Shown here in pieces: positions 2,818 to 63,600 of a stretch of DNA of 64,000 nucleotides; the stretch's first letter is position 1; every line of letters starts with the position of its first letter. The notes below the pieces were generated by a model that saw only the letters and a list, made by a program, of their open reading frames with translations, was not told where the DNA came from and ran no database searches. A program made the translations under genes and the position numbers. The DNA lies in contig CAVYCN010000004.1 of assembly GCA_963767005.1 (NCBI GenBank), positions 288,001 to 352,000 on the forward strand, written 5' to 3'. The stretch comes from an uncultured Actinomycetes bacterium (GTDB lineage: Bacteria > Actinomycetota > Thermoleophilia > UBA2241).

Positions 2818-4698
2818 TCAGTCGGCGTTCCGCGCGACGGCGAAGGCGCCCGTGTGGTCGACGACCGCCCACGCGGTGTGCGTGGCGGGGTCGACGCCGT
2901 AGGCGCCGAGGCCGTAGCCCGCCTCCCAGGGGCCGACGACGGACTTGGGCGTGCCGCCCGCGTTCGCGTCGACGGCCTTCACCCAGCGGCCGCTCGCGTC
3001 CATCGCCACGAGCGTGAGGTCGTGGCCGTGGCAGCCGCGGTAGCTCAGCGAGAGCGCATAGGTGTCGCTCTTCGAGGCGCCCACGTCGGACAGGCCCCAG
3101 AGCGTGAAGACGTTGCTCGCGAGAACGTCGCGCGAAGTGTCGCAGCTCCAGCCGGTGGTGACGTCCTTGGTGAAGGCACGACCTTCGGAGTCGGTGGCCG
3201 TGCTCGTGTTCGTGCCGCCGAGGATCTGGGCCGTCGTGCCGCCGAAGCTGTCCTTGACCGTCGTGTACGGCTTGCCCTCTGGCACGAAGAACTCCTTGCC
3301 CTTCAGGCCGTAGCCGAACGACTCTTCCTTCACGAAGTTGAGGTAGGGCGTGCTCGCGATGGTGTACTCGCTGTGGTTGCTCGCCAGGGTCGGGTTGCTC
3401 ACCGGCGCAGCGTAGTAGTCGACCGTGACGTTGGCGCCGTCGACCGTGACGATGTAGTAGCCGACCTTGTTCAGGTCCTGGGCGATCGGCGTCTCACGGG
3501 TGTTGCCGGTGAAGGGCTGGCCCGCGCCGGTCAGCCCCTGGGCCTTCGCCAGGGCGACATCGAACAGGTAGTCGTTGGTCTGCGTGGGATCGGCCTTGGT
3601 CAGGTAGGGCGTGCCGTCCGTCACCGTGGCCGAGCTGCCGCTGCCCGTGATCGTCTGTGTGGGTGCGCCGATCTCGCCGTAGGGCAGGTAGTACTTCGAG
3701 GCGTCGGACTGGCAGACGATGTCCTGGACGCTCGACTTGCCGTCGGGGCTCGTGTCGACGGCGCGGTTGTACATGTGGTCGTGGCCGCCGATGTAGTAGT
3801 GCACGCCGGCCTTCTGCAGGTCGCTGATGAAGGTGTCCTGCAGGGCGGGCTGCTGCAGCGGGTTGGCGCCGAACAGGTCGTCCTGGTGGCTCTGGGTGAT
3901 GATCCCCTTGTGGGCGAAGACGAAAGCCTGGGTGCCAGCCGGGCGGCTGGTGAGCTCGCTGTTCATCCAGTTCACGTCGTCGGCCGTCAGGGCTTCGTGA
4001 GCCGGCACGGTCGTGTCGGGGCTCGTGAACTGATCGACGAAGACCAGGCGGGCGTTGCGGTAGTCGACCGCATAGTCGAGGCCGGCGAAGCCCTTGGGGG
4101 CCGCGTTGGTCACGACCGCGCCGCACTCGAAGGGCTCGCTCAGCACAGACGCGAACGGCTGCAGGGGATCGTTGCCGGTGGGGTTGAAGGCGCTCGACGG
4201 CGTGGTGCTCATGACCCCCGTCTGCGTCTGTGGATAGTTGGCCACGAGGGCGGCGCCCTGGCCGTCGTCGTGGTTGCCGCTCACGGGGTAGAAGCCGATG
4301 CCGGCGTTGTAGAGATCCTGCGCGAAGGCGGCGCGGGCAGCCTCATTGGCGGCCGAGCCGGTGTCGACGAGGTCGCCGACCTCGACCACGAACTTGACGT
4401 TCTTCTGGATGAACTGGTTGTCGAGCTGGCGGGCGATGTCGACCGAGCAGGTGAACGGGTTGCGGCCGTCGTCGGCCACTGTCCACTGCGTGTCGGCCTC
4501 GATGCCGAACGACCAGGCTTTGCTCGAGCGAACGTAGCTCGAGTCGGCGCACTTGAGATGCGTGGGCAGCACGCCGCGGCCGAACGGCTGCACCGACGCT
4601 GCGGCGCCCGCCGGCGAGCCGGCCAGAGCGACCAGACCGGCGCTCGCCATCACGGCGACGCCCGCGAGCAGCGCCGTCGCCTTTGCCATCCTCTTCAC
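2818..4698 (-). CDS. Secreted calcineurin-like metallophosphoesterase
   Basis: Signal peptide; intact ADTQ, GDLVD, GNHD, FAHK and GGHDH motifs; GTG start with GGAGGG RBS. Confidence 0.85.
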   Translation of the reverse strand: MKRMAKATALLAGVAVMASAGLVALAGSPAGAAASVQPFGRGVLPTHLKCADSSYVRSSKAWSFGIEADTQWTVADDGRNPFTCSVDIARQLDNQFIQKNVKFVVEVGDLVDTGSAANEAARAAFAQDLYNAGIGFYPVSGNHDDGQGAALVANYPQTQTGVMSTTPSSAFNPTGNDPLQPFASVLSEPFECGAVVTNAAPKGFAGLDYAVDYRNARLVFVDQFTSPDTTVPAHEALTADDVNWMNSELTSRPAGTQAFVFAHKGIITQSHQDDLFGANPLQQPALQDTFISDLQKAGVHYYIGGHDHMYNRAVDTSPDGKSSVQDIVCQSDASKYYLPYGEIGAPTQTITGSGSSATVTDGTPYLTKADPTQTNDYLFDVALAKAQGLTGAGQPFTGNTRETPIAQDLNKVGYYIVTVDGANVTVDYYAAPVSNPTLASNHSEYTIASTPYLNFVKEESFGYGLKGKEFFVPEGKPYTTVKDSFGGTTAQILGGTNTSTATDSEGRAFTKDVTTGWSCDTSRDVLASNVFTLWGLSDVGASKSDTYALSLSYRGCHGHDLTLVAMDASGRWVKAVDANAGGTPKSVVGPWEAGYGLGAYGVDPATHTAWAVVDHTGAFAVARNAD

Positions 4699-5050: not shown

Positions 5051-5094
5051 GCTCACGTTTTCCTCACCATGCGCTCACATCAGCCGGGTAGAGT
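5051..5094 (+). promoter_or_regulatory. Pho-box-type promoter (three 11-bp-period repeats plus -10)
   Basis: GCTCAC 5051, CCTCAC 5062, GCTCAC 5073, then 10 bp, then TAGAGT 5089-5094. Confidence 0.8.
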
Positions 5095-7128: not shown

Positions 7129-7194
7129 GCTAACGGAGCGCTCACCGACGTCTCTCACCGCGCTCATCGAGCGCTAGCGACGATCCGTCAGACT
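7129..7194 (+). promoter_or_regulatory. Pho-box-type promoter (five 11-bp-period repeats plus -10)
   Basis: GCTAAC 7129, GCTCAC 7140, TCTCTC 7151, GCTCAT 7162, GCTAGC 7173, then 10 bp, then CAGACT 7189-7194. Confidence 0.75.
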
Positions 7195-7238
7195 GGCGTG
7201 ACCCACGGGGGACGAACGTCCGAAGGAGAGATGGCAAG

Positions 7239-8873
7239 GTGAAGGGCTCGCGCAGGCGCCGGGTCGGCGCCAAGCCGGCGCTGCCGCTGGCCGTCTTCCT
7301 CGCGGCCGTCGCGGCGGTGGCCGTGTCGCACCCCGCTTGCGCGTGGGGAAAGGCTCGCTGGCTGGCGGGCGATCTCAGCACCGGCACCTACCTCACCGAC
7401 GGCAGGACCAGTGAGCACGTCATCGTGTCGAAGGTCATGGCCGACGATGCGTCCGGCTTCGGGCTCCGCTACCTGGCGAACGCCGAACCGGGCGGCCGAT
7501 CCGAGCGGAACGCCGCGGGCGTCAGGTTCACGCTTCCCGTGTGGCGCTGGCAGACGCTGATCTTCGAGTCGTTCCCGCAGATCGTCGCGGCGCGTCAGGC
7601 GCATCCCGACGATTACTTCATCCAGGGACTGCAGTGGGACGCGCCGACGCACGATCAGGTGACCGTGGGCATCGTCGGCAGCGCCAATGAGCCGCAGGCG
7701 GTCGCGGATTTCGAGTACAGGTTCGACGCGGCCGACACGGACACGAGCCGGTCTGACGAGAGCAAGCAGAACACGACGGCGCAGGACGCCTTGAAGGCGG
7801 CCTCCTGGCTGCAGAAGAACTACGCCGCGTCCAGCTACGCGTTCGTCGATCACCCCTCGCGTGACCTGGCGTGGACCGTGGGCGACCTGCGCGCCCTGCA
7901 GGACGCCGCGCCGTCGGTGGTGTGCGGCTTCGAGGGCTTTCCCGGCGATCAGGCGGCCGGCGCGCGAGGCGGCTACGGCGGCTACTTCGACGTGAGCGGC
8001 CACGAGGTGAGCGATCCCGCCGCGGCTGACCCGGTCGAGACGGCGCGTGCTCGCACCTACGGCGGCGCCGACGCGATGGTCGCGAAGGTGGGCGGCGTGT
8101 GGGACGCGCTCCTGGGTGAGGGCCGTCGCTGGTTCGTGTACGGCGACAGCGACTTCAAATGGTGGACGACGAGCTACAAGGACCAAAGCGGCAAGGTGGT
8201 GGGCTCCTCGTACTGCGACTTCTGGCCGGGCCAGTACGGCAAGACCTGGACCTGCGTGCCGAGGAGCGGCTACGGCGGTCTCGTGGCCGCCATCAAGTCG
8301 GGCGACTCGTTCATCGTGAACGGTGACCTCATCGACGCGCTCGATTTCCACGCCGCCTGCGGCAGCACCTCGAAGACGATGGGTCAGACGCTCACGGTCG
8401 GCAAGGGTCGCAGGATCGTGGTCACCATCCGCGTCAAGAGTCCGGCGAAGAACCACGACGGCCGCAAGGTGCACCCCGACCACATCGACCTGATCGCGGG
8501 TGCTGTCACAAGCCGGATCGCACCCTCGAGCCCGGCCTACCCGACACGGGACACGAACCCTACGGCGCACGTGGTGGTGAGCTTCCCCTGGGCGAAGATG
8601 CGCGTCATCAAGGGCTGGCGCGTGGCGACGGTCGCCTTCGTGCTGAAGAAGCGCATGTACTTCCGTCTGCGGGGCACCAATCTGGCGTGCGGCACGACCA
8701 ACCAGACGGATGCATCCGGCGATCCCCTGATCGACACCCTCAGTTACCAGACGCTGCCGAACCCGGACCCCGCGCAGGTCGCGGCGCAGCCGACGGTGAC
8801 CATCAACACGCCCAAGCAGGCCTGGGCCGACCTCTGGTTCTACAGCGACCCGGTCTTCGTCAAGGTCACGTGA
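7239..8873 (+). CDS. Secreted PHP-fold (histidinol-phosphatase-like) protein, apparently catalytically degenerate
   Basis: Signal peptide; WLAGD...TDG, HPSR, GFEGFPG, ARTYGGADAMVAKVGGVWDALLGEGRRW, DFWPGQYGKT, YFRLRGTN and WADLWFYSDP typical of secreted PHP-domain proteins, but expected His ligands are missing. Confidence 0.7.
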   Translation: MKGSRRRRVGAKPALPLAVFLAAVAAVAVSHPACAWGKARWLAGDLSTGTYLTDGRTSEHVIVSKVMADDASGFGLRYLANAEPGGRSERNAAGVRFTLPVWRWQTLIFESFPQIVAARQAHPDDYFIQGLQWDAPTHDQVTVGIVGSANEPQAVADFEYRFDAADTDTSRSDESKQNTTAQDALKAASWLQKNYAASSYAFVDHPSRDLAWTVGDLRALQDAAPSVVCGFEGFPGDQAAGARGGYGGYFDVSGHEVSDPAAADPVETARARTYGGADAMVAKVGGVWDALLGEGRRWFVYGDSDFKWWTTSYKDQSGKVVGSSYCDFWPGQYGKTWTCVPRSGYGGLVAAIKSGDSFIVNGDLIDALDFHAACGSTSKTMGQTLTVGKGRRIVVTIRVKSPAKNHDGRKVHPDHIDLIAGAVTSRIAPSSPAYPTRDTNPTAHVVVSFPWAKMRVIKGWRVATVAFVLKKRMYFRLRGTNLACGTTNQTDASGDPLIDTLSYQTLPNPDPAQVAAQPTVTINTPKQAWADLWFYSDPVFVKVT

Positions 8874-9005: not shown

Positions 9006-10701
9006 ATGGGCGACCCGATGCGGATGAACGACGAGCGGTCCGGACGGCGGCCGTTGCGGGTGGTGAGCGGCCGGCCGCGCCGCAGCGCGCGACGCGCAGC
9101 CCAGGTCCGACGCCGCCGGTTCGTCGCGCTCACCGTCATCGTGCTCGGGGGCCGGCGTGCTGTTCGCGAGCGGCGCTCTGCGGGCCGGCGCGGCGACGCC
9201 GCCGGGCGCCGGCGCGACGCTCGCCTCGATCGCCGGCACGACGACCGGCGACGTGTTCGACCAGCCCTCGGTGACGGCCAACGACGCGACGGCGAGCGGC
9301 GGCCGCCGCTCGTCCGACCTGGCGTTCCGTGACGGTGCGGCCAGCGTCAGCTCGACCCTGGTAGGTAGCGCGCTCCACTCCGAGAGCGATGTCTCTCTCA
9401 GCGACGTCAGCCTGCTGGGCGGCGTCGTCACGGCCGATGCCGTCGAGCTCGTGGCCACGGCCGACGCGAGCGCGCACTCGGCCGACGCCGGCATCGACGG
9501 CAGCTACGTGAGCGGCCTCTCGTCGACGGTCAGCCGGTGAGCGACGAGGAGCTTTCCGGCCCCATCGCCGTGCCCGATGTCGGCACCCTGACAGTGCTCA
9601 GCGCCGCCATCGACGCGAGCGCGCCGTCGCCGAGCGCGACCATCACCGGCCTTACGCTCGTGCTCGATCAGCAGGTCGACGGCCTGCCGGCCGGCAGCGT
9701 CGTCACGGTCGGCAGCGCGGTCGCGTCGGCCGACGCCGCTACCGCCGGCGAGCTGATCAAGATCGCGGCCGAGACGACCGGCCCCACGCCCTTGCCGGCG
9801 CCGACGCCCACCCCCAGCGCGGCGTCCACGTCGAAGGCCAAGCACTCACCCAGCGGCTCGACCGGGAGCGGCGGCTCGGCGACGGGCTCCTCGGGTGGCA
9901 GCGGCGGATCGGTCACCTCGATGCCGGCGCCGTCGGCGCCCAGCAAGGCGGTGCTCGACCGGTTCCCCGGGGCGGTGTTCCCGGTGCGCGGGCACGGTCG
10001 AGTTCACCGACACGTTCGGCGCCTACCGCGCAGACATAAAGGGGCACCGCCACGAGGGCAACGATCTCTTCGCGAAGATGGGCACGCCGATCGTCGCGGT
10101 GCTGGCCGGCACCATCGAGTACAGCACCTACGGGATCGGCGGCAACAACGCCCGCCTGACCGACGCGGCCGGCGACTACTTCTACTACGCACACATGGAG
10201 CGCTTCGCGGCAGGCCTGAAGACGGGGGACCATGTGGCCAAGGGACAGGTGATCGGCTACGTGGGTGAGACCGGCGACGCCGCCGGCACGTCGCCCCATT
10301 GCCACTTCGAGATCCACCCCGGCGGCGGCGCGGCGATCGACCCCTACCCCTACCTGCAGGCCTGGCGCGCCGCCGGCGCCGGGATCGGTCCCATCGACGC
10401 GACGACGCCGGTGGCCACCATCGTGGCGGCCGGCGTCGGCATCCCGCTCGCCGAGATCCTCGCCCGCCGGGGCGTGCTCGCCGTCGAGGCGAGCACGGCG
10501 CTCGCCGGCGGGCGCCGCGTCGTGCCGCGCGACGAGCCGGCCGGGGGCGTGCTCGAGCTGGTCCTGGCCGTGTCGTCGCTGGGCGGTGTCGCCGCGCTGC
10601 GGCGCCTGCGCGCGCCGGCGCTCCCCGAGCTGCTCGCCGAGCACGAGACCGTCGTGCGGCGCACCGTCGTGATCGCCGAACGCTCGCTCACGAAGTCTTA
10701 A
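9006..10701 (+). pseudogene. M23-family metallopeptidase with N-terminal TM and beta-rich domain, split by three frameshifts (pseudogene or sequencing error)
   Basis: Pieces in ORFs 8934.., 9157.., 9537.., 9895.. join into one protein; HEGND, YYAHM, GQVIGYVG.TG, HCHFE and IDPYPYL M23 motifs intact; shifts near 9147 (G5), 9520 and 9990. Confidence 0.75.
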
Positions 10702-10760: not shown

Positions 10761-11465
10761 ATGGCCAAGGAATCGATCCTCGTCGTCGACGACGAGCGTG
10801 AGATCCTCGAGCTGGTCAAGTACAACCTGACCAAGGAAGGCTACAACGTGGTGTGCGTCGAGACGGGCGAGGACGCCCTGAGCGCCGCGCGCCTCAAGCT
10901 GCCCGACCTGGTCCTGCTCGACCTCATGCTGCCCGGCGTCGACGGCCTCGAGGTGTGCCGCAAGCTCAAGGCCGACCCCAAGACGCAGGAGATCCCGGTC
11001 GTCATGCTGACCGCGAAGGGCGGCGAGGCCGACATCGTGGCCGGCCTCGAGCTGGGCGCCGACGACTACGTCACCAAACCCTTCAGCCCGCGTGTGCTCA
11101 CGGCGCGCATCAAGGCCGTGCTGCGGCGCGACCAGACCGAGGACGGCGACGGCCAGTCGACCGTCAAGATCAAGGACCTCGTCATCCACCCCGGTCGACA
11201 CCAGGTGCTCGTCGCCGAGCGGCCCGTCGACCTCACCGCGTCGGAGTTTCGCATCCTGCTGTTCATGGCGCGCAAGCCGGGCTGGGTGTTCACGCGTCAG
11301 CAGATCGTCGACGCCGCACAGGGCGATGACGTCTACGTCAACGAGCGCTTCGTTACCGACCGCTCGGTCGACGTGCACATCGTCTCGCTGCGCCGCAAGC
11401 TCGGACCGTGCGGCGGCTACATCGACACGGTCAGGGGTGTAGGCTACCGGCTCAAGGACGAGTGA
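10761..11465 (+). CDS. phoB: OmpR/PhoB-family response regulator (PhoB/PhoP)
   Basis: ILVVDDE, LLDLMLPG, GADDYVTKPFS, RSVDVHI..LRRKL and TVRGVGYR; next to phoR and pst. Confidence 0.9.
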   Translation: MAKESILVVDDEREILELVKYNLTKEGYNVVCVETGEDALSAARLKLPDLVLLDLMLPGVDGLEVCRKLKADPKTQEIPVVMLTAKGGEADIVAGLELGADDYVTKPFSPRVLTARIKAVLRRDQTEDGDGQSTVKIKDLVIHPGRHQVLVAERPVDLTASEFRILLFMARKPGWVFTRQQIVDAAQGDDVYVNERFVTDRSVDVHIVSLRRKLGPCGGYIDTVRGVGYRLKDE

Positions 11466-11503
11466 GCGGCAAGGCCGCCTGACAGGCGGCGACGATCGCA
11501 CCC

Positions 11504-13312
11504 ATGCGCCACACTCCGCTGTTCTGGAAGCTGTATCTGACCTACCTCGTCGCCGTCGCGCTGTGCGCCGGCGTCGTAGGCTGGTTCGCGGTCGGCACCG
11601 CCTCCGATCTCTACCACCAGCAGGCGGTGAGCGACCTCCACTCGCGCGCCGAGCTCGCCGCGGGCCAGCTCTCGCCGCTGCTCGAGCACCCGCTGCAGCT
11701 GCAGACGCTGGTCCGGCAGCTCGGCTCGAGCGCCGACACGCGCCTCACCGTGATCGCCGGCCCGGCGAGCACCGTGGGCGTCGAAGGCAAGGTGCTCGGC
11801 GACTCCGAGCACGACCCCGCCACCATGGCCAATCACGACACATCCGACCGGACCGAGGTGCTCGCGGCGCTGGACGGCACCGTGGGCGAGAGCGTGCGGC
11901 GCAGCGACACGCTCGGCATCCGCATGTTCTACGTGGCCGTGCCCGTCTTCGACGCCGGCCACCACGTCGAAGCGGTCGTGCGCACGGCGCTGCCGGTGTC
12001 GCAGGTCAACAGCAAGCTCAGCGTGATGCGCGGTCGCATCATCCTCGGCGCGCTGATCGTCGCCCTCGCCATGGCGCTGCTCGGCTACCTCGTGTCGCGT
12101 GGCATCTCCGGTCGCATGCGGGCGATCAAGCGCGGTGCCGAACGCTTCGCCGCCGGCGACTTCGGTCACGAGATCCACGTCACCGATCTCGACGAGATCG
12201 GTGAGGTGGCGACGGGCCTGAACGCCATGGGGCGGCAACTGTCCGAGACGATCCGCGCGATCACCGAGGAGCGCAACGAGCGTGAGGCGGTGCTCAGCGC
12301 CATGACCGAGGGTGTGCTCGCGGTCGACGGACAGGAGCGCGTGATCACGATCAACGCTGCCGGCGCCGGCCTCCTGGGCGTGACGCCTGAACAGGCCCAT
12401 GGCCGCAGCATCCCGGAGGTCGTGCGCAACCCCGAGCTCCAGGCCTTCGTGGCCGCCGTGCTGGCCGGGACGGAGCCCATGGAGGACCACATCGTGCTGC
12501 ACGGCGACGAGGAGCCGCGCGAGCTGCGCGTGCACGGCGACCAGCTGCGGGACAGCGACGGCGAGACCGACGGCGAGGGTCGCGGCGCCGTCATCGTGCT
12601 GAGCGACATCACCCGCATGCGGCGCTACGAGGCGGTGCGCCGCGACTTCGTGGCCAACGTCTCGCACGAGATCAAGACGCCGGTCACCACCATCAAGGGC
12701 TTCGCCGAGACCCTGCTCGACGGCGCGCTCGACGATCGTGCCGACGCCGAGCGGTTCCTGCGCATCATCGTCGGGCAGGCCGACCGCCTGAGCGCCATCA
12801 TCGAGGACCTCCTCAGCCTTTCGAGCCTCGAGGGCGGTCCCGACGACGTCGCGATCACGCTCGAGCGGGGCAGTATCCGCGACGTGCTGCAGGTCGCCCT
12901 CGACGTCTGCGAGATGAAGGCGACGGCACGCGACATCCGGCTCGAGCTCGACTGCCCCGACGATCTGTTCGCCGACATCAACGCGCCGCTGCTCGAGCAG
13001 GCCGTGGTCAATCTCGTCGACAACGCGGTGAAGTACAGCCCCGAGGGCTCGACCGTGGCCGTCTCGGCGGGGATCGAGGCGGCCGGCCTGTCGATCAAGG
13101 TCGAGGATACCGGGCGGGGCATCGGTCGCGACCACCTCTCCCGCCTGTTCGAGCGGTTCTACCGGGTCGACAAGGCGCGCAGCCGCGACATGGGCGGCAC
13201 AGGCCTCGGCCTCGCGATCGTCAAGCACATCGCCGCGGCCCACAGCGGCTGGGTGGCCGTCGAGAGCACACCCGGCGCGGGCAGCACGTTCACCATCACG
13301 CTGCCCGTCTGA
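11504..13312 (+). CDS. phoR: Phosphate regulon sensor histidine kinase (TM-HAMP-PAS-HisKA-HATPase)
   Basis: RRDFVANVSHEIKTP H-box, NLVDNAVKY and FERFYRVDKARSR.MGGTGLGLAIVKH. Confidence 0.92.
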   Translation: MRHTPLFWKLYLTYLVAVALCAGVVGWFAVGTASDLYHQQAVSDLHSRAELAAGQLSPLLEHPLQLQTLVRQLGSSADTRLTVIAGPASTVGVEGKVLGDSEHDPATMANHDTSDRTEVLAALDGTVGESVRRSDTLGIRMFYVAVPVFDAGHHVEAVVRTALPVSQVNSKLSVMRGRIILGALIVALAMALLGYLVSRGISGRMRAIKRGAERFAAGDFGHEIHVTDLDEIGEVATGLNAMGRQLSETIRAITEERNEREAVLSAMTEGVLAVDGQERVITINAAGAGLLGVTPEQAHGRSIPEVVRNPELQAFVAAVLAGTEPMEDHIVLHGDEEPRELRVHGDQLRDSDGETDGEGRGAVIVLSDITRMRRYEAVRRDFVANVSHEIKTPVTTIKGFAETLLDGALDDRADAERFLRIIVGQADRLSAIIEDLLSLSSLEGGPDDVAITLERGSIRDVLQVALDVCEMKATARDIRLELDCPDDLFADINAPLLEQAVVNLVDNAVKYSPEGSTVAVSAGIEAAGLSIKVEDTGRGIGRDHLSRLFERFYRVDKARSRDMGGTGLGLAIVKHIAAAHSGWVAVESTPGAGSTFTITLPV

Positions 13313-13582: not shown

Positions 13583-14650
13583 TCACCAGCAGGGCTTGCT
13601 GCCGGCCTTGATGCTGGAGTGCCAGACCTTCTCGATCGCCGTGATCGCCTTGCTCGGCAGCGGCACGAAGGTGAGCTTCTTGGTGTCGCTGACGCCCGTG
13701 CTGCTCTTGAGCGCCCAGTTGAAGAAGGTGAGCATGGCGTGCGCGTTCGCGTAGCTCGACTGGCTGCGGCGCACGAGGATGTACGTCTCGCCCGTGATCG
13801 GCCAGGCCGTCGTGCCCTTCATGTTCTCGAGGTTGGTGGCGAAGCCGTTCGTCCACGTGTACGAGGCGTGAGAACCGGCGGCGGCGAAGCTCTTCTCCGA
13901 CGGCTGGACCCAAGCACTCGAGGCGTTCTTCATCTGCGCGTAGGCGATGTGGTAGTTGACGGCCCAGCTGTACTCGTCGTAGCCGATCGAGTACGGCCTG
14001 GTCTTGACCGCGTTGGCCACGCCCGACGACTTGGCATAGCCAAGGCCGGTGGGCCAGCTGATCAGCATGCCCTGCTTGGTCCAGCCCGAGTAGGCCTTCT
14101 TGAGGTACATGGTGAAGATGTAGGTCGTGCCCGACTTGTCGGAGCGGTGAATGACCGTGATGGGCTTGGCCGGGAGGGTCAGGCCCGGGTTGATCGCCTT
14201 GATGCGACTGTCGTTCCACTTGGTGATCTTGCCCAGGTAGATCTGCGCCAGGACGGCGCCGGTGAGCTTCAGCTTGCCGGTCTTGGCGCCCATGTTGACG
14301 ATGGGCACGATCCCCTCGATGCACGAGGGAAACTGGACCAGCTGAGGCGACCCGTTCAGCGTTGGCGGGGTCCCGCCGGAGCGCGCCAGGGGCTGGTCGC
14401 TCGCGCCGAAGTTCACGGTGCCGGCCTCGATGGCGTTGATGCCCGCGCCCGAGCCGACTCCCTCGTAGATGACCTTGGCCGTCTTGGTGTAGTTGGAGGC
14501 CCACTGCTGGTAGAGGATCTGGGGCGCAGTCGCGCCGGCGCCGGTGATCGTCGGCACGGCGAAGGCCGCCGATGCGAAGACCAGCATGGCAAGCCCGACA
14601 CCGAGAGCGATGCCGCCTCGCACAGGCCATGATCTTGCCGATAGTCTCAT
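13583..14650 (-). CDS. pstS: Second phosphate-binding protein PstS (signal peptidase I type, no lipobox, Lys-rich)
   Basis: GAGAT, GVGSGAG, FGASD, HRSDKSGTT and WPITG PstS motifs; AFA signal cleavage site. Confidence 0.88.
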   Translation of the reverse strand: MRLSARSWPVRGGIALGVGLAMLVFASAAFAVPTITGAGATAPQILYQQWASNYTKTAKVIYEGVGSGAGINAIEAGTVNFGASDQPLARSGGTPPTLNGSPQLVQFPSCIEGIVPIVNMGAKTGKLKLTGAVLAQIYLGKITKWNDSRIKAINPGLTLPAKPITVIHRSDKSGTTYIFTMYLKKAYSGWTKQGMLISWPTGLGYAKSSGVANAVKTRPYSIGYDEYSWAVNYHIAYAQMKNASSAWVQPSEKSFAAAGSHASYTWTNGFATNLENMKGTTAWPITGETYILVRRSQSSYANAHAMLTFFNWALKSSTGVSDTKKLTFVPLPSKAITAIEKVWHSSIKAGSKPCW

Positions 14651-14710
14651 CCTTCTCTCTCCTTTGCTCTGGTCCCGCGCCCTTGTGCGCGGCTCCGACT
14701 AACGCAGCCG

Positions 14711-14754
14711 ACTGTAGAGAGCCGACGTGAGCCGGCAGTGAGGGGCCGGTGAGC
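14711..14754 (-). promoter_or_regulatory. Pho-box-type promoter of second pstS
   Basis: Minus-strand GCTCAC (14749-54), CCTCAC (14738-43), GCTCAC (14727-32), then 10 bp, then TACAGT (14711-16). Confidence 0.82.
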
Positions 14755-14876
14755 GATGCGATAGATGTCCGTTGCGGCGTCGTGGCGGCTCGATGTGCGG
14801 GACGTTAAGTCCCTGCGTGGTGGGGGCGAGGATGGGACCGCGCGTGGCATGGCAGGCGGCGGGAGCCGCGCCTCAA

Positions 14877-14922
14877 GCAAAGAGACGGCGGGCCCGCGTA
14901 CGCGGGCCCGCCGTCTCTTTGC
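14877..14922. terminator. 46-bp perfect palindrome, probable terminator of the IPT/TIG gene
   Basis: GCAAAGAGACGGCGGGCCCGCGT|ACGCGGGCCCGCCGTCTCTTTGC, ~40 bp after the stop at 14961. Confidence 0.7.
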
Positions 14923-14960
14923 GATCCCGCGTCCGGCCTGCCGGACGCGGGAGTCTCGCC

Positions 14961-15956
14961 TCAGTTGGTGTAGTCGAACTCGTCGACCGGCGCGTTTGCC
15001 GTGCTCTGACCGGAGGCGTTGGTGACGAGAACATCCGCTGTGCCACTGCCGGCCGGCACGACGGCCGTGATGGTCCCGTCATCGACGACGGTGACGTCGG
15101 TGGCGGGGGTCGAGTCGAAGTCGACCTCGGTCGTGCCCGTGAAGTTGCTGCCCGCGATCGTGACGCTGTCGCCGGCCACGCCGGTGGCGGCGCCGGTGAC
15201 GGGATCCTTCGTGTTGGTGGTGGTATCGGTGACGCTCGTCACCTTCGGGAGCGACGACGTCGACGGTACGGTGAAGGTGTACCCGGCGTACATCGACGGC
15301 AGCGCCCACCCCGCCGGGGTCAGGACCGACACGTACAAGGAGGTGTTGGTGTTCGGGACCAGTGGCGTGTAGGCCGGAGAGGTGGCTGTGATCGTCGTGT
15401 CATTGACGACGGTGACGTTGGTGGCCGGGTCGAGGCCGAACCAGACGGCGGTCGCGCCCGTGAAGTAGGTGCCGGTGATCGTCACGGCCGTGCCACCGGT
15501 CATCGGGCCCGAAGTCGGGGCCACGAGCGTGATGTTCGGCAAGGGCAGGCGGTAGGTGTAACGTGCGGCCTTCGCTGCAGCGCTCATGGCGCCGGACTTG
15601 CCGACGACCCGCACCAGGACGGCGCCGGTGGCGTGGCTCGGTGCCATGACCGTGATCTTCCCCGCCGAGACCACGTGCACGTGGCTCGCGGCCTTGGTGC
15701 CGAAGAGGACCTTCTTGACCGCGCTCTTGCCGCCGCTCATGAAGTTCTTGCCGGTGATGGTGACCGTGTTGCCGCCGGTGGTCGGGCCGCTCGCCGCGCG
15801 GACGTGGGTCACGACCGGGCCGGCCGCCGCGAAGGCCAGGCCGGCCGAGGCCAGGCTGACGATCGCCAGCGCGACGAGCGCGAGCGTCAGCAGGCAGAGC
15901 GCGACCGGCCGCGCGCGTCGAGCCGATGGATGGAGTGTGCCGTTGCGTGTCCTCAT
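14961..15956 (-). CDS. Secreted protein with three IPT/TIG (Ig-like) domains
   Basis: Signal peptide; three repeats of P.VT.V...SGP..GG..VTITG.NF.....V.FG......VV....IT...P. Confidence 0.85.
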   Translation of the reverse strand: MRTRNGTLHPSARRARPVALCLLTLALVALAIVSLASAGLAFAAAGPVVTHVRAASGPTTGGNTVTITGKNFMSGGKSAVKKVLFGTKAASHVHVVSAGKITVMAPSHATGAVLVRVVGKSGAMSAAAKAARYTYRLPLPNITLVAPTSGPMTGGTAVTITGTYFTGATAVWFGLDPATNVTVVNDTTITATSPAYTPLVPNTNTSLYVSVLTPAGWALPSMYAGYTFTVPSTSSLPKVTSVTDTTTNTKDPVTGAATGVAGDSVTIAGSNFTGTTEVDFDSTPATDVTVVDDGTITAVVPAGSGTADVLVTNASGQSTANAPVDEFDYTN

Positions 15957-16058
15957 CTTCTTCCCTTCGTGTTGCCCTCGCGCTTGGTGCGCCCCTCGGC
16001 TAGGCGCGCGACGAGGCCGGCCAGCGGCAACGACGTCGCGTCAGGGCCTAGCGCGCTG

Positions 16059-16102
16059 ACTCTAGTGAGTCGATGTGAACCGGACGTGAGCGCCGTATGA
16101 GT
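16059..16102 (-). promoter_or_regulatory. Pho-box-type promoter of IPT/TIG gene
   Basis: Minus-strand ACTCAT (16097-102), GCTCAC (16086-91), GTTCAC (16075-80), then 10 bp, then TAGAGT (16059-64). Confidence 0.8.
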
Positions 16103-16255
16103 TGCCGGCCATCGGCGCGTTGACGCCGCGCGAGGAAGACGTGAGCGCTCCGTTTCGGCGAGGCCAACTACGCTGCCAACACGGCCCGTGGAGAGGTGGT
16201 CGGCGGCGACCGGCTGGGGCCCTTATCGGCACGGCGGCCCGGCACGTGGCCGGCC

Positions 16256-16310
16256 GCTCACGGCAAAAACACCGGTCGCTAACAGGGCGCTAACCCGGCG
16301 ACGGTAACTT
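16256..16310 (+). promoter_or_regulatory. Pho-box promoter of pstSCAB-phoU
   Basis: GCTCAC 16256, AAACAC 16267, GCTAAC 16278, GCTAAC 16289, then 10 bp, then TAACTT 16305-16310. Confidence 0.85.
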
Positions 16311-16365
16311 CTCGCCCGGTGGCCGACGGCTGCCATCGTCCAGGGAAGGGACAAGGAGACCGTTG

Positions 16366-17472
16366 ATGAAGAGATCGAGAAGGTTCTGGTACGCAGTGGC
16401 CTTGGGTCTGGTCGCTCTTGTGGCGGCGGTCGCGCTCGCCGCCTGCGGCAACTCGAACTCGGGCACGTCGAGCAGCTCGAGCCCGTCGTCGGGCTCGGGT
16501 GGTGGCAGCAGCCTGCTCGGCTCTGGCTCGACCTTCGCCCAGCCGCTGTATTCGGCGTGGGCCCAGACCTACCAGGGCGTCGCGGGCGTCAAGCTGAACT
16601 ACCAGGGCGTGGGTTCGGGCACCGGCATCGCCAACATCGAGGCCAAGACGGTGCAGTTCGGCGCCACCGACGCGCCGCTCACCGAATCCGATCTGCAGAG
16701 CAACTCGCTCGTACAGTTCCCGACGGCCGTGGGCGGCACGGTGGTGATCGTCAATCTGAGCGACGTGCCGAACGGCAAGCTCGTGCTGAACGGTCCCACG
16801 CTCGCCAACATCTACCTCGGCAAGATCACCAAGTGGAACGACGCGGCGATCAAGGCCCTGAACCCCGGACTGACCCTGCCGTCGACCGCCATCCACGTGG
16901 TGCATCGCTCCGACAGCTCGGGCACGTCGTGGATCTTCACGAGCTACCTCTCCGCGGTGTCGCCCACGTGGAAGAGCCAGGTCGGCGCCGACAAGTCGCC
17001 CACCTGGCCGGTAGGGGCGGGCGGCGCCAAGAGCGCCGGCGTGGCCGCTCTCGTGGAGCAGATCAAGGGCTCGATCGGCTACGTCGAGTACTCGTACGCC
17101 AAGCAGAACGACATCAGCACCGCGCAGATGGTGAACGCTGCCGGCAAGACCCTCGTGCCGACACTGGCGGGCTTCGCGGCGGCCGCCAAGAACGCGACCT
17201 GGGACCCGAACCAGGGCTTCGCGCTGGCGATCGTCAACGAGTCCGGGGCGACCGCCTGGCCGATCACCGGCGCGACGTACGCCCTGGTGCAGAAGGACCA
17301 GCCCAGCGCCGCGACCGGCAAGATGATCCTCAAGTTCTTCGACTGGGGTTACAAGAACGGCGCCAGTCAGGCGCAGAGCCTGGACTACGTGCCGATCCCG
17401 GCCAGCGTCTACAGCGTGGTCGAGCAGCAGTGGTCACAGATCACGGCGGGCGGCAGCCCGGTGTGGCCGTGA
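16366..17472 (+). CDS. pstS: Phosphate ABC transporter substrate-binding lipoprotein PstS
   Basis: LAAC lipobox; GSGST, YQGVGSGTG, HRSDSSGTS and WPITGATY; AGGAG RBS. Confidence 0.95.
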   Translation: MKRSRRFWYAVALGLVALVAAVALAACGNSNSGTSSSSSPSSGSGGGSSLLGSGSTFAQPLYSAWAQTYQGVAGVKLNYQGVGSGTGIANIEAKTVQFGATDAPLTESDLQSNSLVQFPTAVGGTVVIVNLSDVPNGKLVLNGPTLANIYLGKITKWNDAAIKALNPGLTLPSTAIHVVHRSDSSGTSWIFTSYLSAVSPTWKSQVGADKSPTWPVGAGGAKSAGVAALVEQIKGSIGYVEYSYAKQNDISTAQMVNAAGKTLVPTLAGFAAAAKNATWDPNQGFALAIVNESGATAWPITGATYALVQKDQPSAATGKMILKFFDWGYKNGASQAQSLDYVPIPASVYSVVEQQWSQITAGGSPVWP

Positions 17473-17493
17473 TCTGATCGCACGCAGGCGGCG

Positions 17494-17527
17494 GCGGGCG
17501 GCGAAGCCCTTGGGCTTCGCCGCCCGC
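17494..17527 (+). other. GC-rich stem-loop between pstS and pstC (mRNA stabiliser or partial terminator)
   Basis: 16-bp arms GCGGGCGGCGAAGCCC / GGGCTTCGCCGCCCGC. Confidence 0.65.
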
Positions 17528-17571
17528 TCGTCGCGTTTCGGAGAACCGACGACTCACAGGCGGGTCCGGAG

Positions 17572-18564
17572 ATGAGTACAGTCGAGGCAGAGACAGGAAG
17601 ACAGCCGGGCGGGGCCGGCGCGCAGACCCACGCGCGGCGTCACCACTTCTCGTGGGGCGACCCGCTCTTTCGCTGGTTCACCGTCGCCTGCGCGGCGGCG
17701 GTGGCCCTCGCGATGGTCCTGCTCGTCGGGGTGCTGCTGAAGAACTCCTGGCTGGCGATCCACACGCTCGGCTTCAAACCCCTCACGCACGTCGCCTACG
17801 CGCCGCCGGACACCTATGGTGCCTGGTCGAGCCTCATCGGGACGTTCGTGACGACGATCATCGCCATGGTCATCGCGGTGCCGCTCGCCCTGGCCATCGC
17901 CCTGCTGCTGGTCGAGCTCGTGCACCCCATCGTGTCGCGGGTCGTCGGCACGACGATCGAGATGCTCGCGGCCGTGCCCAGCATCATCTTCGGCATGTGG
18001 GGCCTCTGGATCGTCGTCCCGCTCATGTACAACCACGTGGAGCCCTGGATCCAGGCGACCCCGCTCGGTCGGCTGGCGCTCTTCGGCGGCACGCCGTACG
18101 GCACCGACATCTTCACGGCGGGCGTCGTGCTCAGTCTCATGATCCTGCCGTTCGTCACTGCCGTCTCGCGCGACGTGCTGAAGATGGTGCCGACCGTCAC
18201 CAAGGAGGCGGGCTACGGCATGGGGTCGACCACCTGGGAAGTCATGCGCAAGGTCAGCATGCCGTACGCCCTGTCGGGCATCGCCGGCGCGGTGTTCCTG
18301 GGGCTCGGCCGGGCCCTCGGCGAGACCATGGCGGTGGCGCTGATCATCGGTGGCGGTTTCACCGGCTTCCCGCACAGCCTGTTCGCTCAGGGCACCACAG
18401 TGTCGGCCACGATCGCGCTCAACTTCGGTGACGCCACGTCGAAGCTCGAGACGAGCATGCTCATCGAGCTCGCGCTCATCCTGTTCGCCATCACCATGGT
18501 GTTCCAGGCGCTCGCTCAGCTCTGGCTGGCGCGCGCTCGCCGCATGTCGGGGAGCCGGGCATGA
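17572..18564 (+). CDS. pstC: Phosphate ABC transporter permease PstC
   Basis: IEMLAAVPSIIFGMWGL and LGLGRALGETMAV. Confidence 0.95.
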   Translation: MSTVEAETGRQPGGAGAQTHARRHHFSWGDPLFRWFTVACAAAVALAMVLLVGVLLKNSWLAIHTLGFKPLTHVAYAPPDTYGAWSSLIGTFVTTIIAMVIAVPLALAIALLLVELVHPIVSRVVGTTIEMLAAVPSIIFGMWGLWIVVPLMYNHVEPWIQATPLGRLALFGGTPYGTDIFTAGVVLSLMILPFVTAVSRDVLKMVPTVTKEAGYGMGSTTWEVMRKVSMPYALSGIAGAVFLGLGRALGETMAVALIIGGGFTGFPHSLFAQGTTVSATIALNFGDATSKLETSMLIELALILFAITMVFQALAQLWLARARRMSGSRA

Positions 18565-18595
18565 GCGCCGACAGCATAGGCTCCGCCGGCCTCCC

Positions 18596-19465
18596 ATGAA
18601 GCGGCGCAACGTGGCCGGCCGGAGGCTCACGAACAGGCTTGTCACGACCGGTGCCTGGGTCGCGGCGACGATCGGCATCTTCGTGATGGCCTGGATCGTC
18701 TACACGGTCGTCAGGCGCGGCATCGGCGCCTGGAACCTGGACTTCTTCACGAAGACGCCGCCGCAGGGTCAATGGTTGTCGGGCCACGGCATCGCGAACT
18801 GCATCGTCGGCACCATCCTCATCACTGGCGGTGCGGCTATCGTCGGCCTGCCGCTCGGCTTCTTCGGCGCGATCTACCTGTCGGAGTTCGGTCGCACGGG
18901 GCGCATCGCCACGGTGATCCGCGCCATCACCAACATCGTGCTCGGCGTGCCCTCGATCATCGCCGGCCTGTTTGCCTACGGCCTGATCGTGGTGACCCAG
19001 CACCACTACTCGGGCTTCGCCGGGTCGTTCGCCCTCATGTTCATCATGCTGCCGGTCATGACGCGCACGGCCGAGGACATTCTGAACCTGGTGCCCAACG
19101 AGCTCCGCGAGTCGGCCCTCGCCATGGGCGTGCCCCGCTGGCGCGCGACGCTCGGCGTGGTCGTCAAGGCCGCGCGCGGCGGCCTGATCACCGGCGGTAT
19201 TCTCGCCGTAGTGCGCGTCGCCGGCGAGACCGCGCCCCTGCTGTTCACCGCCCTCAGCAGCCCCTACTGGGTCACGGCGCGCGGGTCGTCGAGCTACTTC
19301 GGCGGCCCGACGGCGAACCTCACGAAGTTCATCTGGGACTACTCCAACGACCCGGATCCCCGCATGGTGCAGATGGCCTGGGGCGCGGCGCTGCTGATCA
19401 TCGTCGCCGTGCTCGGCGCCAACGTCCTGACAAGGCTTCTCTTTCAGCGAGGCAAGGAATGGTAG
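18596..19465 (+). CDS. pstA: Phosphate ABC transporter permease PstA (true start may be 18561)
   Basis: [23 protein letters not shown] and [12 protein letters not shown]. Confidence 0.93.
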
Positions 19466-19470
19466 AGCTC

Positions 19471-20334
19471 ATGGACACGACCGAACCAGGCGCGCCGCCC
19501 CCGGTCGCCAGGCCGTTGCCGCCGCGGCTCGAAGTGACCACCCAGGGCGGCGGTCACGAGGCGGCCGAGTTCGACGCGTTGCCCAGCAAGCTGTCGGTGC
19601 GCGGCCTGAACTTCTTCTACGGCAAGGAGCAGGCGCTCTTCGGTAACGACCTCGACGTCAAGGAGCACCGCGTCACCGCGATCATCGGCCCGTCCGGCTG
19701 CGGCAAGTCGACTCACCTGCGCTGCTACAACCGCATCTACGAGCTCTACCGGGACCAGAAGGCCTCGGGCGAGATCGTGCTCGACGGTGAGAACATCCTG
19801 GCGTCGGGCACCGACCTGCTCGGCCTGCGTCGGCGCGTGGGCATGATCTTCCAGAAGCCGAGCCCGTTCCCCATGACCGTGTTCGACAACGTCGCTTACG
19901 GTCTGCGCATGCACTTCAAGCTGTCGCGGTCGGAGCTCGCCGAGCGCGTCGAGGACGCCCTCAAGCGCGGCGCCCTGTGGGACGAGGTCAAGCACAAGTT
20001 GAACGAGCCCGGCCTCGCCCTGTCCGGTGGTCAGCAGCAGCGCCTCTGCATCGCGCGCGCGATCGCCGCCGAGCCCGAGCTCATCCTCATGGACGAGCCC
20101 TGTTCGGCGATCGACCCGGTCGCCACGGGCAAGATCGAGGAGCTCGTCCAGGAGCTCAAGTCGTCGTACACGATCGCTCTGGTCACCCACAACATGCAGC
20201 AGGCCGCCCGCGTGTCCGACTACACGGCCTTCTTCTTCGAGGGCCGCATCATCGAGTTCGGCGCCACGACGCAGATCTTCGAGAACCCACTTCAGAAGCA
20301 GACAGAGGAATACATCACCGGCCGCTTCGGCTGA
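19471..20334 (+). CDS. pstB: Phosphate ABC transporter ATPase PstB
   Basis: [32 protein letters not shown] and EEYITGRFG. Confidence 0.97.
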
Positions 20335-20347
20335 TCCAGGGGAGTCC

Positions 20348-21067
20348 ATGGCGACACAGCTACAGCGCGAGATCGGCAACCTGAAGAAGAGCATCCTCAC
20401 CCTGAGCGCCCTCGTCGAGGACAATCTGCGGCGCGCCTTCGAGGCCACCGAGCGCCGCGACGAGGCCCTCGCCACCGAGGCCATCGAGCGCGACTTCCCG
20501 ATCGACGTCATGGAGGTCGACGTCGAGGAGGACTGCCTCAAGGCGCTGGCCCTCTACCAGCCGGTGGCCGGCGACCTGCGTTTCATCGTCACCACCATCA
20601 AGATCAACACCACGCTCGAGCGCGTCGGCGACCTCGCCGTGAACATCGCCGAGCGCGCCCGGGAGCTGGCCGGCCTCGATCAGCCGGTCATGGCCTTCGA
20701 CATGACCGGCATGGCGGGCAAGGCGCAGCGCATGGTGGCAAGCGCCCTCGACGCGCTGGTGCGCTCCGACGCGGGCCTGGCGCGCGCCGTCCTGTTGGCC
20801 GACGACGAGGTCGACGACCTCGACCGCGAGATGACCGCCCGGCTGCACGAGGTCGTGCGCGAGCACCCCGAGTGGTTCGAGCCGGTCATGCAGCTTCTGC
20901 AGATCTCACGCTTCATCGAGCGCGTGGCCGACCACGCGACGAGCATCGCCGAAGACGTCATCTACATGGTCGAAGGCGAGATCCCGCGTCACTCGGTCAA
21001 GCGCGCCGTGGCCGAGGCGATGGGCTTCAACGGCACGACGACGCCGCCGAGCTCCCGGCTGGGCTGA
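20348..21067 (+). CDS. phoU: Phosphate signalling complex protein PhoU
   Basis: QPVAGDLR, LERVGDLAVNIA and IERVADHATSIAEDVIYMVEG. Confidence 0.95.
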   Translation: MATQLQREIGNLKKSILTLSALVEDNLRRAFEATERRDEALATEAIERDFPIDVMEVDVEEDCLKALALYQPVAGDLRFIVTTIKINTTLERVGDLAVNIAERARELAGLDQPVMAFDMTGMAGKAQRMVASALDALVRSDAGLARAVLLADDEVDDLDREMTARLHEVVREHPEWFEPVMQLLQISRFIERVADHATSIAEDVIYMVEGEIPRHSVKRAVAEAMGFNGTTTPPSSRLG

Positions 21068-62661: not shown

Positions 62662-63600
62662 TCAGGCGGCGCGCTCCCGAGTCTCGCCGGCCAGCCTGAG
62701 CTCGAGACCGGCGACCTCTTCGTAGAGGCGCACCGGCGACATCTCGCCGGCACCGTCGCCGAAGGCGGCCCGCGCCCGCCGGAACACCTGCTCGACCAGG
62801 GCGCTGAGCTCGACCGGCACGCCCTGGGCGCGCGCCAGGTCGACGGCGAGGCCGAGGTCCTTGCAGGCCAGGGCGACGGCGAAGCCGGGCTCGTAGTCGC
62901 CGTGACGCAGCAGCGGCAGCAGGTCGCGCTCGAGCAGCACGCTGTTCGCGGGGCTCGCGACGAGCGCGTCGTGGAGCACGGCCAGGTCGACGCCGGCGCG
63001 GGTCCCCACCGTCAGGACCTCGGTCACGGCGACGAGCGACGAGAACCAGAGCAGGTTGAGCAGGAGCTTCACGGTGTAGCCGGCCCCGTGGCCGCCGACG
63101 TGGCGGATGCCGGCGGGGTCACCGATCACCTCGAGGACCGGACGGACCCGCTCGAGGTCGTCCGCCTCGCCGCCCACGTAGATCGAGAGCGTGCCGGCAG
63201 CGGCACCCTTGCTCATGCCCGCGACGGGCGCGTCGAGCGTGCGGATGCCGCGCGCCGCGGCGCGGGAGCGCACCTGTTCGGCCACCGCCGGCGTCGACGT
63301 CGACAGGTCGACCCAGAGGGCACTGGCGGGCAGCGCCTCGAGCACGCGGCCCTCGCCGAGCAGGACGTCGGCGACCGCGGCGGGCGTGGGCAGGCTCGTG
63401 AGCAGCACCTCGGCGCCGCCGGCCGCGGCCGCGGCGGAGCGCGCACCACGCGCGCCGGCCGCGACGACCGGCGCCATCCGCCGCGCGTCGATGTCGAACA
63501 CGGTGAGGTCGAAGCCGGCCTGCGCGAGCCGCCGGCTCATGTGGCCGCCCATGCTGCCGAGGCCGACGAAGGCGAGGCGGCTGGTCGTGGCGCCGCTCAT
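62662..63600 (-). CDS. NAD(P)-dependent beta-hydroxyacid dehydrogenase (3-hydroxyisobutyrate dehydrogenase family)
   Basis: FVGLGSMG, DLST, LDAPV, GAG...KL..N and KDL.LA. Confidence 0.9.
   Translation of the reverse strand: MSGATTSRLAFVGLGSMGGHMSRRLAQAGFDLTVFDIDARRMAPVVAAGARGARSAAAAAGGAEVLLTSLPTPAAVADVLLGEGRVLEALPASALWVDLSTSTPAVAEQVRSRAAARGIRTLDAPVAGMSKGAAAGTLSIYVGGEADDLERVRPVLEVIGDPAGIRHVGGHGAGYTVKLLLNLLWFSSLVAVTEVLTVGTRAGVDLAVLHDALVASPANSVLLERDLLPLLRHGDYEPGFAVALACKDLGLAVDLARAQGVPVELSALVEQVFRRARAAFGDGAGEMSPVRLYEEVAGLELRLAGETRERAA

Follow-up and report, generated by a model that had tools for sequence, protein, structure and literature searches.

A probably secreted PHP-fold protein at a Pho locus that lost most of its metal ligands, with parallel losses in related lineages

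The window, by which we mean the whole 64,000-nucleotide stretch of DNA that was analysed, contains an intact, uninterrupted reading frame at 7239-8873 (+) encoding a protein of 544 aminoacids, here called P0001. A Shine-Dalgarno-like AAGGAG is found at 7223-7228 (+), with a GTG start 10 nt downstream. Inspection by eye reveals a basic N-region, a hydrophobic stretch and A-C-A at residues 33-35, from which a Sec-type signal peptide of residues 1-35 is predicted (7239-7343, +); residues 1-37 have a pLDDT below 50. The N-termini of degenerate homologues (with fewer than nine metal ligands, see below) and intact homologues are alike. A sequence-only reading of this DNA had proposed an intact frame for a secreted PHP-fold pseudo-phosphatase, and the frame is borne out. 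A protein from another assembly, P0002, is 98% identical and carries the same degenerate motifs, so the motif changes of P0001 are not a sequencing error.

In terms of neighbours, a predicted secreted calcineurin-like metallophosphoesterase is encoded at 2818-4683 (-). Downstream, a response regulator and a histidine kinase (10761-13312, +), assigned by Pfam and synteny, are likely regulators and phoB-phoR by context. They are followed at 13583-21067 by a pstS-like gene (-), an IPT/TIG gene (-) and pstS-pstC-pstA-pstB-phoU (+), where pstC, pstA and pstB were named by sequence and context. The order HAD-(M23)-PHP-phoB-phoR-pstS is common to degenerate and intact forms of the family. The Nramp-Usp-HAD genes (227-2650) are linked to the PHP locus across three genera, with the PHP protein intact or degenerate. 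The second PstS-like protein (13583-14650, -) has no lipobox, is Lys-rich with a net charge of +21, and apparently keeps its phosphate-binding motifs by eye. Lastly, the M23 peptidase gene (9020-10701) lies in overlapping pieces with single-base indels relative to its orthologue in G011, and in two relatives it forms a single frame of about 545-557 codons; it is either an assembly error or a recent pseudogene.

A candidate PhoB box precedes the gene at 7129-7183 (+), with five 11-bp direct-repeat units (GCTAAC/GCTCAC/TCTCTC/GCTCAT/GCTAGC). The five-unit Pho-type box of the sequence-only reading is thus found, and in a Pho-locus context. When scored with a matrix derived from 13 repeat units in four further promoters of the cluster, this site ranked second of the 8 five-unit sites over threshold in 3.4 Mb, and was the top held-out one. 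Under a strict search, which required three GCTCAC-like units spaced at an 11-bp period, the same 3.4 Mb gave 4 matches at 3 sites, all in the cluster, and the box upstream of the P0001 gene did not pass. Upstream of orthologues in the genus the box scores 6-20 bits for three units, and most sister-genus copies are low; it is weak or absent upstream of many intact orthologues and of both other degenerate lineages with DNA (G102 and G073, whose scanned upstream region was too short). A scan for sigma-70 promoters and terminators gave no match.

The GCTCAC/GCTAAC repeats with an 11-bp period, a candidate PhoB box for the bacterial family of P0001, were also seen at window positions 5051, 8939, 14765 (-), 16113 (-) and 16256, and at position 63191 (-) of contig C10 of the same genome (G000). 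They precede both pstS genes, the TIG gene, the M23 gene and a glucosaminidase-like gene, and one strong site outside the cluster lies upstream of a short ORF. From the box shared with the pstS promoters and from linkage to phoBR-pstS, we infer that the P0001 gene is a member of the Pho regulon. Streptomyces PhoP boxes likewise have an 11-bp period and several units and lie upstream of pstS, but their consensus is GG/TTCAYYYRG/CG (PMC2275107), whereas the core of the putative PhoB site here is GCTCAC/GCTAAC.

The AlphaFold2 model of P0001, built from a 119-sequence alignment, has a pLDDT of 92.5 and consists of a PHP barrel (residues 38-364, 7350-8330, +) and a C-terminal beta-sandwich (8331-8684, +). 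The top Foldseek match is 3E38 (E 3.8e-6). In VIA-align the same structure gives Z 17.5 with an rmsd of 2.9 over 222 aligned residues, 2ANU is next (Z 16.0), and the top 21 rows all belong to PHP proteins or to enzymes that contain a PHP domain (Z 17.5 to 7.4). By its modelled fold, a distorted TIM/PHP barrel, P0001 belongs to the PHP superfamily, as had been proposed. In sequence searches, Pfam gave no family at E<=0.1, with the PF02811 (PHP) HMM unmatched, a PDB sequence search gave no match, and a family profile found nothing beyond 2ANU (E 0.35) and a single unrelated row. The beta-sandwich alone had no structural match at E<=0.001. The sole library match is NF038032, the CehA/McbA family metallohydrolase domain (E 1.5e-6), where the 27.9 bits of P0001 fall short of the 80-bit cut-off; among 10 proteins scanned, the intact P0092 alone reaches it (80.5). 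An ESM Atlas cluster named CehA/McbA family metallohydrolase has a score of 0.92. Of 7997 candidates scored in a protein search, 1377 were relatives, and the best 120 of these 1377 were used for the family motif alignment.

Close homologues share the pattern GDxHxHT..TDG / NSEHGG / GxEWNxPxHEH / NHPSR / EGxPGHQ / xxSDxH. The family pattern that the sequence-only reading had put forward is therefore the real one, as close homologues align to it, and every motif it quoted for P0001 is present in the sequence. Garner et al. (PMC11656708) assign H61, H63 and D260 to the alpha metal, H203 and H142 to beta, E135 to the bridge, and D68, H93 and H262 to gamma. The P0001 equivalents, mapped through the family alignment and motif order and not by residue-level superposition, are columns H47, H49 and D305 (alpha), H205 and H140 (beta), E132 (bridge), and D54, H84 and H307 (gamma). 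Counted over 212-233 wider-family domains per column, conservation is 98% for H47, 99% for H49, 84% for D54, 97% for H84, 98% for E132, 93% for H140, 99% for H205, 98% for D305 and 97% for H307. We took H140 as the ligand because H138 (75%) and H237 (64%) are less conserved. The G-H-Q that had been listed among the ligand motifs has to be dropped for this reason, H237 being no canonical ligand.

At these nine columns P0001 has S47, G49, D54, P84, Q132, Q140, H205, D305 and K307. Motif I (7377-7400) carries S47 and G49 in place of His and retains D54. The former gamma-metal His is P84 (7488-7490), a substitution whose convergence is addressed below from the alignment, lineage counts and a bootstrapped tree. 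Motif III (7632-7658) has Q132 for the bridging Glu, H138 as a retained non-ligand, and Q140 for the beta-metal His. Next, H205-P-S-R208 (7851-7862) keeps the beta-metal His, together with an Arg conserved in 95% of the family, and motif IV (8151-8159) keeps D305 with K307 in place of His; all these motifs are on the + strand. Six of the nine ligands are thus replaced (H47S, H49G, H84P, E132Q, H140Q, H307K), with two of three lost at alpha, one of two at beta, two of three at gamma, and Gln at the bridge. As only D54, H205 and D305 remain, all three metal sites are broken. The loss is as systematic as had been claimed, but these three residues are retained and the DHPSR motif was missing from the earlier list. 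No ligands conserved at other positions appear in the alignment. As aligned, P0001 lacks the nine-ligand set of catalytic trinuclear PHP phosphoesterases, with three of nine kept.

Other departures from the pattern exist in the wider family. In a separate subfamily (L117, L119, L167 and L118, from G028, G032, G110 and G013) Glu replaces H140 and position 237 is Ser, while the remaining ligands are intact; these proteins possibly use metals differently. In a betaproteobacterial branch (L073-L101, with Duganella, Janthinobacterium, Massilia and Ralstonia rows) D54 is shifted or replaced by A, V or P, and the other eight ligands are retained. Tandem PHP-PHP fusions with both sites intact (P0146, P0147, P0148, P0122) and tandem gene pairs (G028, G032) hint that the family may work as a dimer.

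As for fusions with other enzymes, a Metallophos domain is present in 7 of 24 longer homologues, and several distant intact homologues lie near phoB/phoR/pst-like genes. From these neighbours and fusions, the intact enzyme is probably a secreted phosphate-scavenging phosphoesterase. The calcineurin-like subfamily encoded at 2818-4683 is the one fused to the PHP family elsewhere, in both orders; the PHP part is degenerate in L097/P0225 (apparently one lineage), and P0233 is a further PHP fusion. In P0266, which is also degenerate, the fusion partner is a purple-acid-phosphatase-type domain.

Of the 89 genomes of the taxonomic family, 32 gave a match to the PHP family, two of these matches being weak fragments, and so did 8 of the 11 other genomes of the P0001 genus within this set. 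A 301-genome sample of the class gave only 1 match outside the taxonomic family. The genome of P0001 has a single member. All 9 copies in its genus are degenerate. In the sister genus, 7 genomes have a fully intact copy and one a frameshifted copy, the G102 and G073 copies are degenerate, and the G077 copy is of outgroup type.

Once 9 duplicates, 2 truncated proteins, one frameshifted copy (G089) and one near-duplicate (L172) had been left out, the ingroup that we compared comprised 102 rows, of which 44 are intact and 58 have fewer than nine ligands. On a tree with the ligand columns excluded, the degenerate rows form 12 lineages, and a bootstrapped 50-row tree requires 11 changes of the H84 state. 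If the three basal groups are merged, and two adjacent groups likewise, 9 origins remain, of which 8 have Pro. A 55-row tree constrained to keep 23 degenerate rows together is worse by 899 lnL (p-AU 0.00013), and on residues 40-145 alone a single origin costs 108 lnL (p-AU 0.003); both a single origin and long-tract recombination are rejected by these values. A very short conversion tract behind the shared loss is possible. For the nine non-basal lineages, over residues 40-125, the nearest neighbour is intact in seven, one is a tie, and that of lineage D is degenerate.

By majority state, H84 has changed in all 12 lineages, H140 in 11, H47 and E132 in 7 each and H307 in 6, with no lineage changed at H49 or D54; one lineage is defined by the H84 change alone. 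Residue 84 is Pro in 11 of the 12 and Leu in one. In neighbouring genes, used as a control, His-Pro accounts for 1 of 114 His exchanges, and Pro at 84 in 8 of 9 origins has a p of 4e-4 even at a 30% prior. The other ligand positions have mixed replacement residues. Complete domains in the wider sample mostly retain their ligands, with 8-9 present in 191 of 196, and position 84 is His in 210 of 216; the few degenerate proteins outside the ingroup clade likewise lack H84. One-, two- and multi-hit intermediates occur naturally (P0071, P0028/P0034, P0026, P0001) with surviving intact sisters alongside, where identity reaches about 89% (P0034 vs P0068; 0.83-0.94 depending on the segment compared). 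On these alignments and trees, ligand loss arose in at least 9 independent lineages, nearly always via H84P.

The degenerate gene is under purifying selection. By codon maximum likelihood (MGK+F3X4), omega is 0.156 across 10 degenerate genes and 0.102 across 9 intact orthologues, and omega=1 is worse by 563 lnL for the degenerate gene. The gap is larger and unstable with GY+F (0.082 vs 0.007-0.02 in intact genes). NG86 gives 0.38 vs 0.49, and the likelihood values are preferred because NG86 is inflated by GC3 saturation. All these estimates are far below 1. Mild relaxation of selection in the degenerate genes is possible; omega in the degenerate and intact genus is also 0.128/0.081 for HAD, 0.065/0.046 for Nramp and 0.082/0.070 for PhoR, while PhoB shifts the opposite way (0.033/0.068).

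That the gene is merely decaying, or an assembly artefact, is scarcely credible. It could draw on the single-base indels of the neighbouring M23 gene in the same assembly and on an omega about 1.5-fold above that of intact orthologues, but 58 full-length degenerate sequences exist, the genus subtree (32 rows) spans 4.1 substitutions per site, neutrality is rejected, and P0002 has identical motifs. With an enzyme fold, its catalytic residues lost as aligned, and purifying selection, P0001 qualifies as a predicted pseudoenzyme. Furthermore, ligand loss, purifying selection and the Pho context together argue for a selected role without need of the trinuclear site, and to this extent the sequence-only reading is supported; polyphosphate, phosphoesters and wall polymers, which it had suggested as binding partners, are candidates.

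The residues that persist point to one side of the old pocket. Q238, R243, S304, R218, P206 and S207 are invariant in all 58 degenerate rows, and R208 is kept in 47. Within the genus clade there is no change at H205, Q238, R243, S304, F234, G302 or W308 and one at R208, against a drift of 9, 5 and 5 changes at positions 307, 49 and 305. In No-PDE and 3E38 the leaving-group pocket is lined by the residue that comes three positions after the beta His (PMC11656708). R208 of P0001 holds this place, which favours a metal-poor binder of phosphate or a phosphoester.

One alternative is a changed enzyme. In this reading, a remodelled oxygen-donor site (D54, E83, Q132, D134, D204, D237, D303, D305) would bind Ca, Mg or Mn, or a metal-free H205/H138 pair would act, giving a slower or shifted phosphoesterase. 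The genus has gained acidic residues (D134, D204, D209, D237, D303) and keeps H205 invariant. Two genomes, G003 and G006 (84% and 92% complete), showed no PhoD, PhoA, PhoX, PF04185 or neighbouring type of metallophosphoesterase, and the degenerate PHP domain of E. coli DnaE is reported to have pyrophosphatase activity (PMC4822814), a precedent for retained activity. Against this, replacements vary by lineage (S, D, Q, T, R or Y at 140; S, K, R, Y or V at 307), D305 drifts among D/E/N/Q, H138 is gone in 6 and H205 in 4 of the 58 rows, and no common new catalytic set is visible among the degenerate rows. We regard continued catalysis as improbable.

Two inserts distinguish the clade. The span 307-327 is 21 residues long in most ingroup rows (48 of the 58 degenerate ones, 41 of the 44 intact ones), compared with 6-8 in all 16 outgroup rows. 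In P0001 it forms a beta-hairpin directly after motif IV (8160-8216, +), with strands at 310-314 and 320-325 in the model. The second insert covers residues 503-514 (8745-8780, +). Both occur in degenerate and intact members alike, which suggests that a second function predates the loss of catalysis. These inserts could serve a structural or partner role, where the protein would be a wall-associated scaffold acting through its outer surface and the clade hairpins, and H84P a stabilising route to a metal-free fold. The losses do cluster in the insert-bearing clade (58 of 102 rows) and are rare elsewhere, the hairpin persists in degenerate forms (K314 in 54 of 58 rows), omega is similar in the barrel, beta-sandwich and tail (0.14, 0.14 and 0.17), and DnaE is a precedent for a structural PHP domain. 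This role, however, leaves the fixed pocket-side residues of the genus (H205, R208, Q238, R243, F234, W308) without a part, and no partner emerged, the metallophosphoesterase having been found in only 6 of 11 genomes with a degenerate PHP protein. It is unlikely, yet not negligible.

The Lys/Arg-rich C-terminal part that had been noted is real (K+R 0.17 in P0001), but it does not distinguish the two forms, since the C-terminal domain has a median of 0.14 both in 44 intact and in 33 degenerate clade members. The basic beta-sandwich is, on sequence comparison, like that of intact relatives.

The position of the gene suggests one more role, that of a sensor accessory which binds an extracellular organophosphate and signals via the extracytoplasmic domain of the adjacent PhoR. 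In both genera the PHP gene is located a short way upstream of phoB-phoR, and PhoR does have such a domain, but intact forms occupy the same slot and the PHP family was found in only the 32 of 89 genomes given above. By eye, the PhoR ectodomains of degenerate lineages share no changes, that of L173 closely resembling the one of the intact G100. No PHP-PhoR co-evolution was seen in this way; a scripted test was informative for PhoB and HAD only, with PhoR of two lineages missing. We consider this role very improbable.

Some other accounts of the loss were rejected. An intact paralogue as partner has no candidate, G000 having one family match and its other PHP-type genes being unrelated. Replacement by the metallophosphoesterase, which turned up in 6 of 11 genomes with a degenerate PHP protein vs 1 of 8 with an intact one, is not accepted because 5 of those 6 genomes belong to one genus. 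General metal-sparing is set aside, as the neighbouring metallophosphoesterase retains its motifs by eye. PhoD, PhoA, PhoX and PF04185 gave 1, 2, 2 and 8 matches in 19 genomes, with no pattern. A complex prediction of P0001 with the metallophosphoesterase scored 0.00, which is no answer and weighs neither way.

The explanation that we prefer, at about an even chance, is that P0001 is a likely secreted, PhoB-induced pseudo-enzyme that binds a phosphate compound without cutting it. Its ancestor would have been an intact secreted phosphoesterase with a trinuclear site, similar to Sb-PDE and 3E38, that served in phosphate scavenging. The clade would then have gained the two surface inserts, one directly after ligand H307, likely with a second, non-catalytic use. 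In at least 9 lineages H84P would have removed the gamma metal and probably stiffened the loop, to be followed by losses of H140, E132, H47, H307 and, last, H49. The side with H205, R208, Q238, R243 and S304, fixed throughout, likely still holds a phosphate or phosphoester group, and through its basic beta-sandwich the protein may be kept at the wall of the cell, close to PstSCAB or to a co-induced phosphatase.

The Metallophos fusions fit such a phosphate-scavenging ancestry, and recurrent ligand loss in separate lineages suggests that a non-cutting binder of phosphate compounds arose repeatedly. On the other side, the retained residues are kept in intact enzymes too and may be structural, and R208 is replaced in 11 of the 58 degenerate rows. 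Residues that have replaced the former ligands change 2-3 times in the genus clade, close to the median of 2, and so show no unusual constraint. The pocket itself is acidic there (6-8 D/E vs 1-3 K/R), which is not an obvious anion-site design. A broader version, where H84P was positively selected at least 8 times and a silenced phosphoesterase became, without duplication, an extracellular organophosphate-capture class, is offered tentatively and is in our view somewhat more likely wrong than right.

Pseudoenzymes are mostly described as products of gene duplication. In this family the active site of a single-copy orthologue was lost in place, on many occasions and through the same unusual substitution, and the intact, intermediate and degenerate forms make up a graded series in which catalysis may have been traded for binding or structure. 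The family is possibly an unrecognised part of bacterial phosphate scavenging, and its PHP/CehA-like annotations would overcount phosphatases. If the reading as a binder is true, this would be a bacterial enzyme-to-receptor switch that repeats itself, and a new class of extracellular organophosphate-capture protein. Among the papers listed in searches of the open-access literature, none dealt with this family, with secreted stand-alone PHP pseudoenzymes or with convergence at H84P.

Finally, we compare P0001 with known systems. The closest in architecture are 3E38 (BVU_3505) and Sb-PDE/No-PDE, with a PHP barrel and a C-terminal beta domain; the alignment to 3E38 covers the range 36-496. Garner et al. 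name this structure as the one solved homologue of Sb-PDE, and the nine ligands that they list match the P0001 family in order and spacing (PMC11656708). Sb-PDE carries a Sec signal peptide (PMC5460133). They differ in identity (about 15%), in having nine ligands and three Zn where P0001 has three ligands, and in their smaller inserts. The CehA/McbA family (NF038032) is the only library match, yet below its cut-off. As for ligand loss, the variant, metal-free PHP domain of E. coli DnaE has 5 of 9 ligands replaced on a conserved scaffold, with Glu-to-Asp at position 5 and a basic residue at 9, and DnaE domains, like the P0001 family, most often lose positions 4, 6 and 9 (PMC3666897). Which ligand positions go is therefore partly a property of the fold, but this does not explain the recurrent Pro at 84. 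The DnaE domain is part of a cytoplasmic polymerase, while P0001 is stand-alone, likely secreted and single-copy. For DnaE, one event in an ancestor of alpha-, beta- and gamma-proteobacteria has been suggested, compared with at least 9 losses and recurrent His-to-Pro in the P0001 clade. Metal-free PHP domains are thus already known from DnaE, and what stands out here is repeated, stereotyped loss without duplication.
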